Sequence record: NC_024125.2
Direction: 5' to 3' (one strand)
Length of the DNA stretch: 64,000 nt
Source: Escherichia phage vB_EcoM_112
Below are positions 20,007-25,710 of the stretch, in pieces. A program made the translations under genes and the position numbers. Each line of letters opens with the position of its first letter. Positions within the stretch are counted from its first letter, which is position 1. Below the pieces are notes generated by a model. It worked only from the letters and a program-made list of their open reading frames with translations. It searched no databases and had not been told where the DNA came from.

Positions 20007-20534
20007 TTATGCGAGTACCGTCTTTAACCGTTCTTCAAATTTCCGAAGAGTGTTCTGGCGTTCAGCTCTTTGCTTTTTGTAAGTTTCAATACGCTCTGAA
20101 ATGAGATTGTATCGTTCATTTACTGATTCTTTCATAAAATCAGGAATTTCACGAGAAGCTTTAATCTCGTCAAATTTATCAATAACAGCTTGCTCTTCAG
20201 CAATTAAGTTATCATACATCAAAATATCTTTCTTGATGAACTCAATATCTTCTTGAGTTACACGAGATAATTTAGATGCTTTATCCTTTTTGTACTGTTC
20301 GTTAGTATCACGAGACCAGTGTAATGTACGATTTTTATTCGTATTTTTGTAAATTTCTACAATACCAATCTCATCGATAATAACGATCCAATTCCAACGA
20401 GATTTGTAAATTTGTCCTCCATCAACCGTGATTTCACCTCCAATTGAGATGTCATTAAAGAACTTGCTTTGAGCTTCAGATTTAAATTTACCATCATTGT
20501 AGTTTACCAAGTTGAAAATATCTTTAGCATTCAT
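20007..20534 (-). CDS. hypothetical protein
   Basis: Start set at MNAKDIF after an RBS; the track's N-terminal extension is a translated promoter repeat. Confidence 0.5.
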   Translation of the reverse strand: MNAKDIFNLVNYNDGKFKSEAQSKFFNDISIGGEITVDGGQIYKSRWNWIVIIDEIGIVEIYKNTNKNRTLHWSRDTNEQYKKDKASKLSRVTQEDIEFIKKDILMYDNLIAEEQAVIDKFDEIKASREIPDFMKESVNERYNLISERIETYKKQRAERQNTLRKFEERLKTVLA

Positions 20535-20997: not shown

Positions 20998-21966
20998 TTA
21001 TTTCAGAAGAGTAACCTCAGCAATTTCTCCCCAACCATTTTTGTCGGTCATAATAAAGTCAGCAAGATAAAGAGCAGTACGCAGTGAAACATTGCGTAAA
21101 CGATTAACATTGACTTTCATCCATGATAATGCTTTATAAGTTTCTTCATCAGAAAGACCACGCTTTTGCATCATGTCGGTTGAAAGAATAACATCTTCAA
21201 CCCTGACCATAATTTCTTCATTAGTGTGAACACCCAAATCTAAATAAACTGAGCGGGAAACTAATGCTTGTAAATGTGGAGCAAGTTTAGTACCACGGTC
21301 TAATTCGCGGTCAATGTCAACGTTTGTGATAAAAACAATCGTTCCTTTAAATTCAAACTCACGCTCAATGCCTTTTTCTTCTAAGTAAGAAGATGCGGTA
21401 CTCCAGCAGACTTTACGGGTCTCTCCAGTGTCCAGAGCAGCTTTCAGAAGATTAAGAATGTCCATATCAGAGAAAACATCCACATCATCAATCAAAAGGA
21501 CAGAATTCTCTTCACGATTATTCCAAAGCTGCTCATAAAGACCAATACCAGAGATTTTACCGTTAATGCTTTTATATTCAATGTATCCATTATCATTTGC
21601 TTTATTTAAAGCTTTATCTAAAGAATACGTTTTACCAATACCTGCTGCACCAGAGATAATTAATGAACGAATGTTTCCGTTAATAATACCATTCGTCATC
21701 ATTCCCATAACATTAAATCTTTTATTAATGCGGGTTTTCATATCTTCATATGATTCTTTAACTTCTTCAACTTTTACACCATCATATGAAATGTCTGATT
21801 TGTAAACCCAAACACCGCGACGTTTACCGTCAATTTCAACAAAAACTTTACCATCTCCTTGTGCATCTACCGGAGCATTATCTGGGAACCATTCGCCTAA
21901 GAGCTCAAAAGTTCCAGAGATTTCTTTACCGAAGTAGATACCCTTATTGATAGTTACAGTTTTCAT
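20998..21966 (-). CDS. AAA+/P-loop ATPase
   Basis: Walker A GAAGIGKT, Walker B LLIDDVD, sensor-like FITN; start set at MKTVTINKG. Confidence 0.6.
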   Translation of the reverse strand: MKTVTINKGIYFGKEISGTFELLGEWFPDNAPVDAQGDGKVFVEIDGKRRGVWVYKSDISYDGVKVEEVKESYEDMKTRINKRFNVMGMMTNGIINGNIRSLIISGAAGIGKTYSLDKALNKANDNGYIEYKSINGKISGIGLYEQLWNNREENSVLLIDDVDVFSDMDILNLLKAALDTGETRKVCWSTASSYLEEKGIEREFEFKGTIVFITNVDIDRELDRGTKLAPHLQALVSRSVYLDLGVHTNEEIMVRVEDVILSTDMMQKRGLSDEETYKALSWMKVNVNRLRNVSLRTALYLADFIMTDKNGWGEIAEVTLLK

Positions 21967-22003
21967 TTTATTCTCCAAATCTGTATCAGTAGTTGATAGT
22001 TGT

Positions 22004-22033
22004 ATAGTACCATAAAGCTTTATGCTTGTAAAC
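22004..22033 (-). promoter_or_regulatory. T4-type early promoter
   Basis: GTTTAC, 18 nt, TACTAT; 33 nt identical to the cassette at 36993..37025. Confidence 0.6.
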
Positions 22034-22061
22034 AACTTTGTGAAAAATTTTTGAAATAAAA

Positions 22062-22083
22062 AAGGGAGCCCGAAGGCTCCCTA
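22062..22083 (-). terminator. intrinsic terminator
   Basis: GGGAGCC-UUCG-GGCUCCC hairpin followed by UUUUUAUUU on the minus transcript. Confidence 0.55.
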
Positions 22084-23097
22084 TCATTTATAATAACTTC
22101 GGTGGTTTTCAAGATAGACCTTCTCAAGGAAGTCATCCCAGAAACTCATGTCTACTTTTTGCTGCATACCGTTCTTAGAAGCTTCAGTAGATGCTGCTTC
22201 TACTTGATCGACCGCATCTTCCAAAAACTCTTGAACGGTTTTAAATGGATGTTTACCCAACTTCACGTCGAGAATAAATGGAGCATCTTGGAGTGGATAA
22301 ATCAAGTCGCCAGTTTTGTAAATTTCCAATAGTTGAAGTCCACCACGGCAAGCATGGCTCAGAGCTTTCCAGTCAATACCTTCGTTGGCTTCAGCCTTAC
22401 GAGCGCGTTCACCGTATTCAGCATCTAATTTGTTCAGTGACTGCTTAAGCTCAATAAGAGAAAGAGTTGTCTGATATTTACGACCCAACACTGTGTAAAA
22501 CGTCTGTGGGCCTGTTTTCTCATGATTATGGAACACCCATTCACAGAATTCGTTTTCTGGAAGACGATGCTTAATATCTTCAACTTTAGTACGACGCTGC
22601 TTAATAGAACCATCTTCTTGGTAATCAACCCATTGCTCAGGGATTTGATTAACTACTTTCAATACATCACGTAATGCAGCCAAACGAGAACCCTTGACAC
22701 CGTATTTAGAAGCTTGCTTGCGGACATATCCTAAATATGATTTCATGTTAGTCGTATAAAAACGAGAACGGTTGTCTTGGATAAACTTCCACACATCAGG
22801 CAAATCAGATTTAACCACTAGTTCAGGTGGAGTGTGAAGCATATCTAATGCTACGGTTTCACCATCTGCTGCTAATTTAAAGAAATACTTAAGACTGTAT
22901 AGTTCATGGTCAATATCATCTTTAGTGTTTTTAGATGATGTGTTGTTGGTATTTTTACTCATATGCTCTTTGACGTTTCCGATAAGAATATCGCGAGCAG
23001 GAGGAACAAAGATTTCTTTAAAATCTAAGTCAGATTCTGGGGTAGAAGTTCCATACAGATGACTACCAAAATAGCTTTTCATTACTGTTTTCATCAT
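22084..23097 (-). CDS. Pol-beta superfamily nucleotidyltransferase-like protein
   Basis: N-terminal GSHLYGTSTPESDLDF (GS...D.D) motif and downstream acidic residues; 337 aa. Confidence 0.55.
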   Translation of the reverse strand: MMKTVMKSYFGSHLYGTSTPESDLDFKEIFVPPARDILIGNVKEHMSKNTNNTSSKNTKDDIDHELYSLKYFFKLAADGETVALDMLHTPPELVVKSDLPDVWKFIQDNRSRFYTTNMKSYLGYVRKQASKYGVKGSRLAALRDVLKVVNQIPEQWVDYQEDGSIKQRRTKVEDIKHRLPENEFCEWVFHNHEKTGPQTFYTVLGRKYQTTLSLIELKQSLNKLDAEYGERARKAEANEGIDWKALSHACRGGLQLLEIYKTGDLIYPLQDAPFILDVKLGKHPFKTVQEFLEDAVDQVEAASTEASKNGMQQKVDMSFWDDFLEKVYLENHRSYYK

Positions 23098-23555
23098 TCA
23101 GCCTTATATTCAATAACAGGACATACTTTAGCTTTACGCGCTTTTAAAAATTCGACGATAATCGATTTCTTTGGTTGAATAGGAGGTAAACCTTTATACG
23201 CCCTATCAATATTTTCTAGGTGTAAAGCATAATCCTTTTTCCATTTATAATCTTTATATTTTTCACGCAAATGTGCAGGAATAACAAATGAACCGATAAT
23301 AAGTAAAACAACCAAAAGCGCAAGTATAAATGCCGATGGAAGAAGAGTCCATAAACTACCGAAAATAAGCCAACGTTGTAGGCTTTCTGCACAAATAATT
23401 GTTAACCCTACGAGTATAGCACACCCAAAAATAGAAACGAAAAATGTAGGAATGACAATAGACCAAAAATATGCGCATAGTGTCTTAGGTCGTTGCCATT
23501 CATCGTTAAACAATTTGAATAATTTATAGTGCCAAGAGTTTTCATTAATAATCAT
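23094..23555 (-). CDS. membrane protein
   Basis: 153 aa with three or more hydrophobic helices. Confidence 0.5.
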   Translation of the reverse strand: MIINENSWHYKLFKLFNDEWQRPKTLCAYFWSIVIPTFFVSIFGCAILVGLTIICAESLQRWLIFGSLWTLLPSAFILALLVVLLIIGSFVIPAHLREKYKDYKWKKDYALHLENIDRAYKGLPPIQPKKSIIVEFLKARKAKVCPVIEYKAE

Positions 23556-23557
23556 AA

Positions 23558-24079
23558 TTATCCTTTCATTGAAGGCGTAACGGTTGTTAAATACTTAATC
23601 ATAGCTTCAGCTTCTGATTTTGATAATGAAATTTCTCCATTGTTTTGACGAATAGAAATAAAATCCGGATGACGGTCACCACCAGCTTTTAAAACACACA
23701 TATAAGTATCAACTTCGCCTTCAATATTTGAAATGATTGAAGCAGTTCCACATGAATGCGGTTTTTGATAAATCAATACAGCTTTTCTTCCACCGTTTGA
23801 CTGCTCATAGGCTTTTAATACATCAAGCAAATCAGTTCTTTTATCAATAGCTAAAATGTTGTTTTCATCTTCAATGTTAAATCCTTCGGATACTTCATAA
23901 AGCGTTACCCATAAATCACCAATGTCAATAACAGCATTTACTTTTCCACGGCTTTTAAGAGTATGACAAATTTTCTTGATTTCGTCATAACTCATTTTAA
24001 TAATATCATCTCCTTGACTAAGGAAGATGTCATTTTTAAATTCAACACGAATTAAACCACTTCCACTTGAAATAAACAT
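23558..24079 (-). CDS. hypothetical protein (tandem paralogue A)
   Basis: 173 aa; shares the GDL.V..Y...G.NIE.E block and C-terminal pattern with the next gene. Confidence 0.5.
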   Translation of the reverse strand: MFISSGSGLIRVEFKNDIFLSQGDDIIKMSYDEIKKICHTLKSRGKVNAVIDIGDLWVTLYEVSEGFNIEDENNILAIDKRTDLLDVLKAYEQSNGGRKAVLIYQKPHSCGTASIISNIEGEVDTYMCVLKAGGDRHPDFISIRQNNGEISLSKSEAEAMIKYLTTVTPSMKG

Positions 24080-24085
24080 ATTTCC

Positions 24086-24640
24086 TCACTTTGAAATCAT
24101 AGTTGGAATAACAGAATCAAGATAAGTCTTTAGTGCAATAGCTTCGTCTTTGGTAAATGTGACAATATGTGCTCGAGAATCATCAATTTGGCGAACAAGT
24201 ACGACATCGCCATCTTCATAAGAAGTCTTGACATCCAAAGTCGTAGTATAATTTGCAGCTACTGGATTAATAATGCTAGCACCGCGATCTTTAGCCCATT
24301 GAAGTTTAGCCTTTTCGGGTGTTTCGACTGTTTCAGATTCCAAGAATTCTTTCACCTTGGCAACGAATGTTGCCCAATTGTTGATAGAAAGACACATAAA
24401 TTCAGTTTCAATATTACCGCCGTAAAGGCCACGATAAAAACGAACTTGGAGGTCGCCTGTAATATTAGTTACACCGGTAACTCCTGAGGGAGCATAAGAT
24501 AAAATCGCAGCCAGTTCCATAGGAAGAATAGTAATACTATCGTCTTCCTGCGTCAGAACGTATACATTATCACGTTTTTCGATAACCAGGTCACCGAACA
24601 AATCAGTTGTTTCAATTACAGCTTTCATATTATTTACCAA
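24086..24640 (-). CDS. hypothetical protein (tandem paralogue B)
   Basis: 184 aa; paralogous to 23558..24079. Confidence 0.5.
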   Translation of the reverse strand: MVNNMKAVIETTDLFGDLVIEKRDNVYVLTQEDDSITILPMELAAILSYAPSGVTGVTNITGDLQVRFYRGLYGGNIETEFMCLSINNWATFVAKVKEFLESETVETPEKAKLQWAKDRGASIINPVAANYTTTLDVKTSYEDGDVVLVRQIDDSRAHIVTFTKDEAIALKTYLDSVIPTMISK

Positions 24641-24815
24641 TTAAAGTTTCAATATAAGAATCAAGATTTACTTTAGCTTCTTCCATAAGAGTTTTGTATT
24701 TAATCTTGTTAGCATGTCCGGAGAAAGCTGATTCATCAATAATTGTTGATGTATGAACAGCTTTACTATACGTCTCAATTAATTCTCTTAATTTAAAAGC
24801 CTGCTCACTTGTCAT
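24630..24815 (-). CDS. small helical protein (EQ..KL family)
   Basis: 61 aa, MTSEQAFKLRELIETY... Confidence 0.4.
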   Translation of the reverse strand: MTSEQAFKLRELIETYSKAVHTSTIIDESAFSGHANKIKYKTLMEEAKVNLDSYIETLIGK

Positions 24816-24979
24816 TACATACTCCTTTGAATAATATCAATAATGTTGTTCACCAGATTATAAGTAAACATTGGATAATTATATTGAATCATCACATACA
24901 CAACAAACAAAACTTTCATTCTCTTCTCCTTGACAGTTGGCAAGATTACTATACCATAACCTTGCCAACTTGTAAACCA

Positions 24980-25153
24980 TTAAATGACGTTTTCGATAAA
25001 ATTCTGAAGCTTTGTGTGAGCATCAACCATGATTTTCATTTCTTCCTTTGCGAAAGCTGTACCTCTTTCCCGAGAAGAACACTCATAGTCAGAAACTGCA
25101 TTAGCATATTCTTCAATTAGCTTCATTAAAAACATCTGCTTTTCAGTTTTCAT
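24980..25153 (-). CDS. small helical protein (57 aa, below the track cutoff)
   Basis: Hand-translated MKTEKQMFLMKLIEEYANAV...; RBS present. Confidence 0.3.
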   Translation of the reverse strand: MKTEKQMFLMKLIEEYANAVSDYECSSRERGTAFAKEEMKIMVDAHTKLQNFIENVI

Positions 25154-25337
25154 TATTCCACCTAATCATTTCAAGATATTGAACTAACTTAGCTTTAGAT
25201 TTATCCAAATCCCTTTTAGCTGATTCTATACCTTCGTATGAATATCCTTCACAATGCTCAACTGCCAATTGATATGAATCTATTTCAATATCACGTGCTA
25301 ATTTAATGATTTTTTCAAACTGTTCGCGTGTTAGCAT
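25143..25337 (-). CDS. small helical protein (EQ..KL family)
   Basis: 64 aa, MLTREQFEKIIKLARDIE... Confidence 0.4.
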   Translation of the reverse strand: MLTREQFEKIIKLARDIEIDSYQLAVEHCEGYSYEGIESAKRDLDKSKAKLVQYLEMIRWNNEN

Positions 25338-25339
25338 AA

Positions 25340-25522
25340 TTAAACTCTCGTATTATGATCGATAATTTCATCAAGAAACATATCTAACGCTTCTAAAGCA
25401 TTATCAACTTTAGCTTCAAGTTCATCAATACCTGATAAGGCAAAATTAATGCGCTCCTCATCTGCTTTGCGAATTAAAGCTACCAATTCTTTAAGTTTAT
25501 CTGCTTGTTCTATACTAATCAT
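25340..25522 (-). CDS. small helical protein (EQ..KL family)
   Basis: Start set at [13 protein letters not shown] (60 aa), ATGA-coupled to the upstream gene. Confidence 0.4.
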   Translation of the reverse strand: MISIEQADKLKELVALIRKADEERINFALSGIDELEAKVDNALEALDMFLDEIIDHNTRV

Positions 25523-25710
25523 TATTCCACCACATATGAAAGAGAGAATATTGCACACGCCATATGAGTTGCAACTTCATCACACATATTATAACGTTTC
25601 TTAAGAAGTTCTACAAGTTCTTCACTAGTAACTTCATCCATGTCGACGAAAAAATCACCATTAATGATGACGTAGATATTTCCTTCTTGATTAAGTGCTT
25701 CAATTTTCAT
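25522..25710 (-). CDS. small hypothetical protein
   Basis: Start set at [10 protein letters not shown], downstream of the promoter at 25739..25768 and preceded by GGAG. Confidence 0.4.

Follow-up and report, generated by a model that had tools for sequence, protein, structure and literature searches.

Tandem MobD.1/Y05I-family paralogues with a predicted Pur-alpha-like three-repeat architecture in Escherichia phage vB_EcoM_112

Tandem paralogues in the tk-nrdC region

Two adjacent genes of Escherichia phage vB_EcoM_112, here called gene A and gene B, are established on sequence grounds as tandem paralogues, true but old relatives of each other. With moderate confidence, we propose that these MobD.1/Y05I genes are non-essential early accessory genes encoding acidic, dimeric three-repeat proteins, the variable N-domain of which binds a basic partner. 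Both lie on the minus strand of the window, i.e. the whole stretch of 64,000 nucleotides that was analysed (NC_024125.2). Gene A (23558..24079; 173 aa plus stop codon) is the second paralogue, of the RB32ORF097c / bas37_0208 type, while gene B occupies 24086..24628 (180 aa plus stop).

Aligned end to end, the two proteins share 29% identity and 47% positives over 173 columns (BLASTP, E=1e-8), and their Smith-Waterman score of 96 lies far above those of shuffled controls (31 +/- 5, maximum 61, n=2000; z=12.6). The original prediction had pointed to a shared motif block and to similar C-terminal endings. The block is present in both proteins, as GDLWVTLY...GFNIEDE in gene A and as GDLQVRFY...GGNIETE in gene B, and the endings were likewise recovered from both. 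Each protein also passes the gathering cut-offs of two Pfam domains, T4_y05I_N (PF24449, cut-off 24.9) and T4_y05I_C (PF24448, cut-off 27), both of which were required in N-to-C order. The scores are 115.5 and 79.9 bits for gene A and 109.9 and 62.9 bits for gene B, with E-values for both proteins between 1e-17 and 1e-33 (for gene B, 1e-31 with PF24449 and 3.7e-17 with PF24448), which places both in the family. Furthermore, phrog_1502 (178-position profile) is matched over its full length by both, with E=9e-67 and 3e-67. Only the low identity could speak for a chance resemblance, or for one of the ORFs not being a real gene. Given the distance from shuffled sequences, the mutually independent Pfam and PHROG matches, the purifying selection on gene A (see below) and the detection of T4 MobD.1 as a protein, we regard such an explanation as vanishingly improbable and in fact already refuted. 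A nucleotide-level repeat linking gene A with gene B was looked for and none was found; the 64-kb window contains no further paralogue of either gene and no DUF7189 gene.

The two ORFs had been placed correctly on the minus strand, with one correction concerning the start of gene B. The mechanically delimited ORF spans 24086-24640 and begins with TTG at 24640. The start is, however, most likely the ATG at 24628, since the TTG would overlap the stop codon of the preceding gene and since the ATG is used both by a 100% identical protein of 180 aa (P0001) and by the RefSeq CDS of phage G4507.

The window has a G+C content of about 34%, and the locus region is 97-98% identical to many Tequatrovirus (T4-like) phages. 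It represents the tk-to-nrdC early region, with its genes on the minus strand in the order tk, rI.1, rI, rI.-1, the mobD.5-to-mobD.2 group, a 61-aa gene, gene B, gene A, a 153-aa membrane-protein gene, nrdC.11 and nrdC.10.

Family membership and annotation

The family bears the Pfam name 'y05I-like putative transcription factor', Y05I (Y05I_BPT4) being the UniProt name of T4 MobD.1 (accession P39240). In RB3, RB68 and Mosigvirus, mobD.1 is annotated at the position of gene B, between mobD.2 and the nrdC.11 side. By this synteny and by its sequence, gene B is the orthologue of T4 mobD.1, which is listed as phrog_1502 in the supplement of PMC11879866. Gene B is 48% identical to the T4 allele; the last 45 residues of the two are nearly the same, whereas the N-terminal 135 residues of gene B represent a Mosigvirus-like allele and not the T4 one. 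Gene A keeps the two-domain architecture of MobD.1, together with matches above both Pfam cut-offs, but it constitutes a separate clade. When the T4 mobD/nrdC region was searched for the pair, as the original prediction had suggested, the orthologue of gene B was present and gene A was absent.

Members of the family were found in 731 records (tblastn). At an identity of at least 90%, gene A occurs in about 431 phage records, all of them with Tequatrovirus-type names or enterobacterial hosts. Gene A-type sequences were seen in Tequatrovirus only, always adjoining mobD.1, while Mosigvirus and Dhakavirus-like phages possess a single y05I copy followed by the membrane gene. At the level of representative proteins the family has very few members: of 1.84 billion searched with a profile, 29 matched at E<=0.001, including stand-alone C-domain proteins and three distant full-length members. 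No informative domain fusion was present among these 29 relatives.

The name mobD.1 denotes a map position only. Neither protein is a MobD homing endonuclease, as no HNH match was obtained with either and the T4-type MobD is a different protein of 259 aa. In the RefSeq records of G4507, RB3 and RB68 (loci L001-L003), homologues of mobD.1 and mobD.4 are labelled 'molybdopterin-guanine dinucleotide biosynthesis protein MobD'. We found no MobA or MobB match in Pfam or NCBIfam, and the label seems to be a mistake carried over from the gene name; on mobD.1 it can go. NCBIfam returned nothing meaningful for the family. Literature searches with 'y05I' gave irrelevant matches, and those with 'mobD.1' only a review listing the mobD insertion site.

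The pair belongs to an ordinary catalogued family and is itself already catalogued. The initial description of the two genes as being of unknown function calls for some qualification, as the family had been curated in Pfam and one of the copies is a named T4 gene. The contributions of the present analysis are the reading as Pur-alpha-like proteins with three repeats, the connection with DUF7189, the argument from acidity and the reconstruction of the mobD replacement in T4. In terms of annotation, hundreds of T4-like genomes encode two 'hypothetical proteins' that can be designated as MobD.1-family paralogues with a Pur-alpha-like three-repeat architecture.

One apparent exception proved to be an artefact. 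A '57% allele' of gene A in phage T2 derives from a record (NC_054931.1; locus L008, 940-2481) in which mobD.1, gene A and the membrane gene, three adjacent genes, are all frameshifted within about 1.5 kb. A sequencing or assembly error is more likely here than three pseudogenes.

Replacement of gene A in T4

Phage T4 and its close kin lack gene A and carry a 780-nt mobD homing-endonuclease gene in its place. Junction alignments and the RB3 annotation delimit the segment replaced by the mobD (HNH homing endonuclease) cassette in T4 and RB3 to 23100..24060 of the window. At the left junction, RB3 retains the first 19 nt of gene A (ATGTTTATTTCAAGTGGAA), as seen in an alignment with its locus (L002, 2172-3019), and at the right junction homology resumes exactly at the start codon (ATG) of nrdC.11. 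From this remnant and this point of resumption, it can be inferred that the cassette replaced gene A from codon 7 on, together with the membrane-protein gene. The latter (23094..23555, minus strand; an ORF of 153 aa, RB69ORF104c type, phrog_944 membrane protein) is translationally coupled to gene A and was lost along with it in T4, and it is conserved beside y05I genes in Mosigvirus, Dhakavirus-like phages and metagenomic loci.

T4-type mobD was detected at an identity of at least 95% in only 47 records. Judging from the records compared, the tandem pair is the usual state in Tequatrovirus and T4 is the exception. T4 itself is atypical at this locus, where the endonuclease cassette has taken the place of the second paralogue and of the membrane-protein gene. 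The target site of MobD is listed as unknown (PMC2988022), and the conserved flanks of the cassette are candidates for it.

A mosaic locus and the origin of gene A

Most Tequatroviruses are 93-97% identical to the window throughout gene A and up to about position 24220, which corresponds to the last 45 codons of gene B, and diverge thereafter. These final codons (approximately 45) are nearly identical in all Tequatroviruses including T4. The 5' two-thirds of gene B are 73-81% identical in nucleotides to Mosigvirus-type phages; at the protein level, its N-terminal 135 codons are 68-76% identical to Mosigvirus-type alleles and about 48% to the T4 allele. A recombination breakpoint is located at about 24220 inside gene B, the affected stretch reaching to about 24815, and the extra DUF7438 gene of the window (see below) is missing from RB68. 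In both paralogues, the N-domain is more variable than the C-domain; between MobD.1 alleles, the respective identities are 39% and 65%.

Several metagenomic proteins combine parts of neighbouring genes. In P0043, a MobD.1 N-domain is joined to the C-domain of gene A, in P0054 the N-terminus of MobD.1 is fused to the C-terminus of NrdC.11, in P0063 the N-terminus of a DUF7189 protein is fused to the C-terminal part of MobD.1, and P0047 consists of a MobD.1 N-domain and an unrelated C-terminal stretch. We do not regard them as real domain fusions, as they look like products of deletion or recombination, and they suggest that both processes are frequent among neighbouring genes at this locus. A direct repeat of 29 nt (79% identity) was also noted at 24095-24123 and 24639-24667, encoding the C-terminal tails of MobD.1 (LDSVIPTMISK) and of the upstream DUF7438 protein (LDSYIETLIGK); chance, a shared tail motif and a recombination footprint are all conceivable.

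As for the origin of gene A, the original prediction had assumed a local duplication that has since diverged. Homology and tandem paralogy are borne out, and a local origin is plausible, but the trees leave gene A outside the MobD.1 clades. Neighbour-joining trees were computed for the full-length proteins and for each of the two domains. In all of them the gene A clade lies outside every MobD.1 orthologue, whether from Tequatrovirus, Mosigvirus or Dhakavirus-like phages, although these are midpoint-rooted distance trees and as such weak evidence. Gene A is about as distant from the neighbouring gene B (about 30% identity) as from any MobD.1. Given this branching, the split may predate the divergence of these genera, fast divergence may have followed a duplication in situ, or gene A may have been imported by recombination. 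The last of these, i.e. acquisition of a divergent family member next to mobD.1 from another T4-like phage with no duplication in situ, is a tentative alternative that we hold to be somewhat doubtful. It would account for the position of gene A in the trees, and it fits a locus where mobD.1 is Mosigvirus-like in its 5' part and T4-like at its 3' end, where mobD and the block of gene A and the membrane gene are exchanged as cassettes, and where chimeric or deleted forms such as P0043, P0054 and P0063 occur. However, gene A-type sequences were seen only in Tequatrovirus and beside mobD.1, so that no donor lineage is apparent; the same tree would be expected from fast divergence after a local duplication, and tandem duplication is common here, as exemplified by four DUF7438 genes just upstream.

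Predicted fold and repeat architecture

Both proteins are divided into an N-domain and a C-domain. In gene A, the N-domain (23792..24079, minus strand) comprises residues 1-96 with repeats 1 and 2, and the C-domain (23561..23785, minus strand) residues 99-173 with repeat 3. In gene B, residues 1-100 form the N-domain (24329..24628, minus strand), which contains two repeats and represents the Mosigvirus-like allele, and residues 104-180 the C-domain (24089..24319, minus strand), which contains the third repeat and matches PF24448. An AlphaFold2 model of gene B, built from 16 sequences, has a confident N-domain (pLDDT 81-93) consisting of four strands, a helix, four strands and a helix; the C-domain was poorly predicted from this shallow alignment, with low pLDDT. 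A deeper alignment of 31 sequences, which included stand-alone C-domain proteins, gave a model of gene A with a mean pLDDT of 87.8. Here the C-domain is confident as well (pLDDT 71-95); it comprises five strands and a long helix, with a conserved Y-L-x-x-V-x-P-x-M tail at its end. The N-domain is accordingly predicted to be made of two beta-beta-beta-beta-alpha repeats forming one intramolecular PUR/PC4-like domain.

Repeat 1 and repeat 3 are homologous (hhalign probability 93%, E=3.6e-7). Single-repeat relatives exist in T4-like phages, both as stand-alone y05I_C proteins of 67-87 aa and as members of DUF7189 (PF23819; a family of 66-71 aa), which carry one repeat only and are homologous to repeats 1 and 3 (hhalign probabilities 83% and 91%, respectively). 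In Dhakavirus-like and metagenomic loci, DUF7189 proteins of 54-71 aa are encoded directly upstream of mobD.1 (L005, 5773-5988; L007, 989-1189 and 1543-1707), and a DksA/TraR-type zinc-finger gene lies just before them.

The best structural matches of the models are Pur-alpha, MRP1/2, Whirly p24 and StWhy2, so that structure prediction, which the original prediction had proposed as a check, assigns a Pur-alpha-like fold to the pair. A review describes the PC4-like fold as binding nucleic acids in all kingdoms, and classes the Pur-alpha-type architecture as a type I domain accompanied by one further repeat, which makes up a type II domain on dimerisation (PMC7549692); for Pur-alpha itself, dimerisation is reportedly mediated by repeat III (PMC4764581). 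With a two-repeat domain and a third repeat homologous to repeat 1, the phage proteins would have the architecture of Pur-alpha. What they appear to have in common with it (PDB 3k44, 5FGP, 5FGO, 8chw) are the beta-beta-beta-beta-alpha repeats, I and II being combined in one intramolecular domain. In contrast, identity to Pur-alpha is only 5-11%, and in Pfam neither protein has a PurA or Whirly profile match at E<=1. The phage proteins are also acidic and, as far as composition and conservation tell, without sign of the conserved K/N/R and aromatic DNA contacts. Structural matches to Whirly, MRP1-MRP2 and the PC4-like superfamily are weaker than those to Pur-alpha. Whirly and MRP proteins are basic and assemble as tetramers or heterotetramers around nucleic acid. 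SsgA-like proteins (PDB 3cm1) share the predicted fold and act by protein contacts; they show no sequence relationship to the family and come from an unrelated context, being actinobacterial cell-division proteins. A sequence profile search of PDB gave only a chance match (CsoS1D, E=0.42), and a search of a viral structure library only the family itself and uncharacterised Bacillus-phage proteins.

Acidity, selection and dispensability

All 18 full-length members of the alignment are acidic, with pI of 4.2-5.8 and net charge from -3 to -22. The N-domain of gene B alone has a pI of 4.2 and a net charge of -9, and the value of -22 is reached in distant members. Conserved residues of the N-domain are E, D, Q, G and I, with the motifs Q-E-D-D and N-I-E-x-E; together with R-Q-x-D-D, these constitute acidic conserved motifs, presumably at the surface. 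The sole invariant basic residue of the N-domain is K93 in the second helix, and none is found in a predicted beta-strand. Among three phages, dN/dS of gene A is 0.03-0.17, indicative of purifying selection.

MobD.1 of T4 is classed as early by RNA as well as by protein data (PMC9697503 supplement), and knock-down of mobD.1 left fitness unaffected (PMC11879866 supplement). In phages grown on E. coli K-12, transposon insertions hit 58 of the 59 TA sites of T4 mobD.1, 54 of 56 sites in bas37_0209 and 36 of 39 in bas37_0208, and all three genes were classed as non-essential (preprint 10.1101/2025.11.20.689424, supplement). Neither gene is named as conditionally essential in the text of 10.1101/2025.11.20.689424, nor is either flagged so in the published T4 and Bas37 screens. 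Redundancy between the paralogues could mask the phenotype of a single knock-out, and this is one tangible way in which screens of single genes may have overlooked an effect.

Proposed role and alternative explanations

The role that we propose draws on the analysis for homology, family, predicted fold, repeat relation, acidity and selection, and on published data for early expression and dispensability. Each protein is an acidic polypeptide of about 20 kDa, predicted to consist of three beta-sheet-plus-helix (PUR / PC4-like) repeats, the first two of which are combined in one intramolecular domain. Repeat 3, with its helix and tail the most conserved, would be unable to form such a domain alone and would pair with repeat 3 of a second chain, as in Pur-alpha repeat III. 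The existence of stand-alone C-domain proteins of 67-87 aa fits a module that must pair to fold, like type II PC4-like domains (PMC7549692), as does the low confidence with which the C-domain of gene B was predicted as a monomer from the shallow alignment. Homodimers, and possibly A:B heterodimers, would result, each of them exposing two N-domains. The variable N-domain would then bind a basic partner, in all likelihood a protein of host or phage origin, and the protein might act as a modulator or decoy in early takeover or counter-defence. We prefer a basic partner because the whole family is acidic and because its conserved, presumably surface-exposed motifs are acidic as well. Genes of the nearby region have been reported as counter-defence genes, namely nrdC.1 against Septu and Bas37_0203 against Druantia III, making an accessory role of the counter-defence type plausible; this location is nevertheless weak evidence, as gene order is broadly conserved in T4-like genomes.

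The main competing explanation is that the proteins are binders of single-stranded DNA or RNA, similar to Pur-alpha or Whirly, and would have an early regulatory role in the transcription, translation or replication of phage or host. The prior favours it, since almost every characterised protein of this fold is a binder of single-stranded DNA or RNA. The best structural matches of the models are themselves nucleic-acid-binding proteins, the PC4-like fold is credited with this function in all kingdoms (PMC7549692), and an intramolecular domain accompanied by a single third repeat is what Pur-alpha has. Early production would also fit, and the Pfam label 'putative transcription factor' implies such a role, although the label presumably follows the same logic of the fold. 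On the other hand, the family is uniformly acidic, down to the N-domain of gene B, and Pur-alpha contacts nucleic acid through K/N/R and aromatic residues, a K-to-E change being predicted to impair binding there. In the phage N-domains, E, D, Q, G and I are conserved instead and the only invariant basic residue, K93, sits in a helix. Sequence profiles of PurA and Whirly found no match, and the SsgA-like proteins illustrate that the fold may also be used for protein contacts. An overall acidic pI is compatible with a local basic patch; on balance, we think that partner binding is more likely than direct single-stranded nucleic-acid binding, which we consider an unlikely though serious alternative. 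A more specific version of partner binding would make the MobD.1 family acidic, dimeric Pur-alpha-like decoys, in which the N-domain mimics nucleic acid or otherwise traps a basic protein of the host, for example a nuclease or a defence sensor. Here the conserved third repeat would provide homo- and heterodimers, the N-domain would be fast-evolving and the second paralogue would widen the target range. In so specific a form the idea is a long shot; if true, the takeover or counter-defence proteins of phages would gain a new class, built on a fold known so far almost only for nucleic-acid binding. More generally, if acidic PUR-fold proteins serve as decoys or counter-defence factors, the family would extend the known roles of the fold, about which we can only speculate at present.

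Transcription unit and neighbouring genes

The best consensus match to a promoter in the region is a site at 24948..24976 (minus strand) composed of TTTACA, a 17-nt spacer and TG-TATAGT, with 10 of 12 consensus positions and an extended -10, identified as a pattern match only. A terminator-like hairpin with an 8-bp GC-rich stem followed by a T run lies after nrdC.11 (22063..22082, minus strand), where a terminator is also annotated in G4507, and is likely to mark the end of the transcription unit. From the promoter-like site, one unit could comprise mobD.2, a DUF7438 gene, gene B, gene A, the membrane gene and nrdC.11, the stop and start codons of which are coupled or nearly so.

This arrangement raises the question whether the y05I proteins, the co-transcribed membrane protein and NrdC.11 form one functional module, for example in RNA repair or modification. 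NrdC.11 (22084-23097, minus strand) matches Pfam RlaP, the 'RNA repair pathway DNA polymerase beta family' of nucleotidyltransferases (E=3e-11). Tequatrovirus, Mosigvirus, a Dhakavirus-like phage and a distant metagenomic contig all have y05I, a membrane protein of about 150 aa and an RlaP nucleotidyltransferase in this order, and a single promoter-like site and a single terminator enclose the tightly coupled genes. However, T4 has lost both gene A and the membrane gene while retaining mobD.1 and nrdC.11, and T4-like phages generally share their gene order irrespective of function. Neither co-variation nor fusion lends support, the only fusion seen (P0054) resembling a deletion product, and we judge a common module to be very improbable.

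Among the genes further downstream, NrdC.10 (20998-22035, minus strand) gave weak matches to P-loop, AAA and STAND-type NTPases, all below Pfam cut-offs. At the nrdC.8 position, five genes from gene A, a protein of 175 aa (20010-20534, minus strand) is a homologue of Bas37_0203 with 99% identity. Bas37_0203 has been reported in a 2025 preprint to inhibit the Druantia type III defence system (10.1101/2025.11.20.689424), and its position rules out that it corresponds to gene A or gene B. The 61-aa DUF7438 copy upstream of gene B is labelled 'helicase loader' in PHROGs and RefSeq, and no supporting evidence for this label was found. The four DUF7438 genes (24630-24815, 24980-25153, 25143-25337 and 25340-25543, all on the minus strand; Pfam E 1e-12 to 1e-17) encode small helical proteins of the mobD.2a/.3/.4 types plus the extra 61-aa copy, and represent a second, larger array of tandem paralogues next to the y05I pair.
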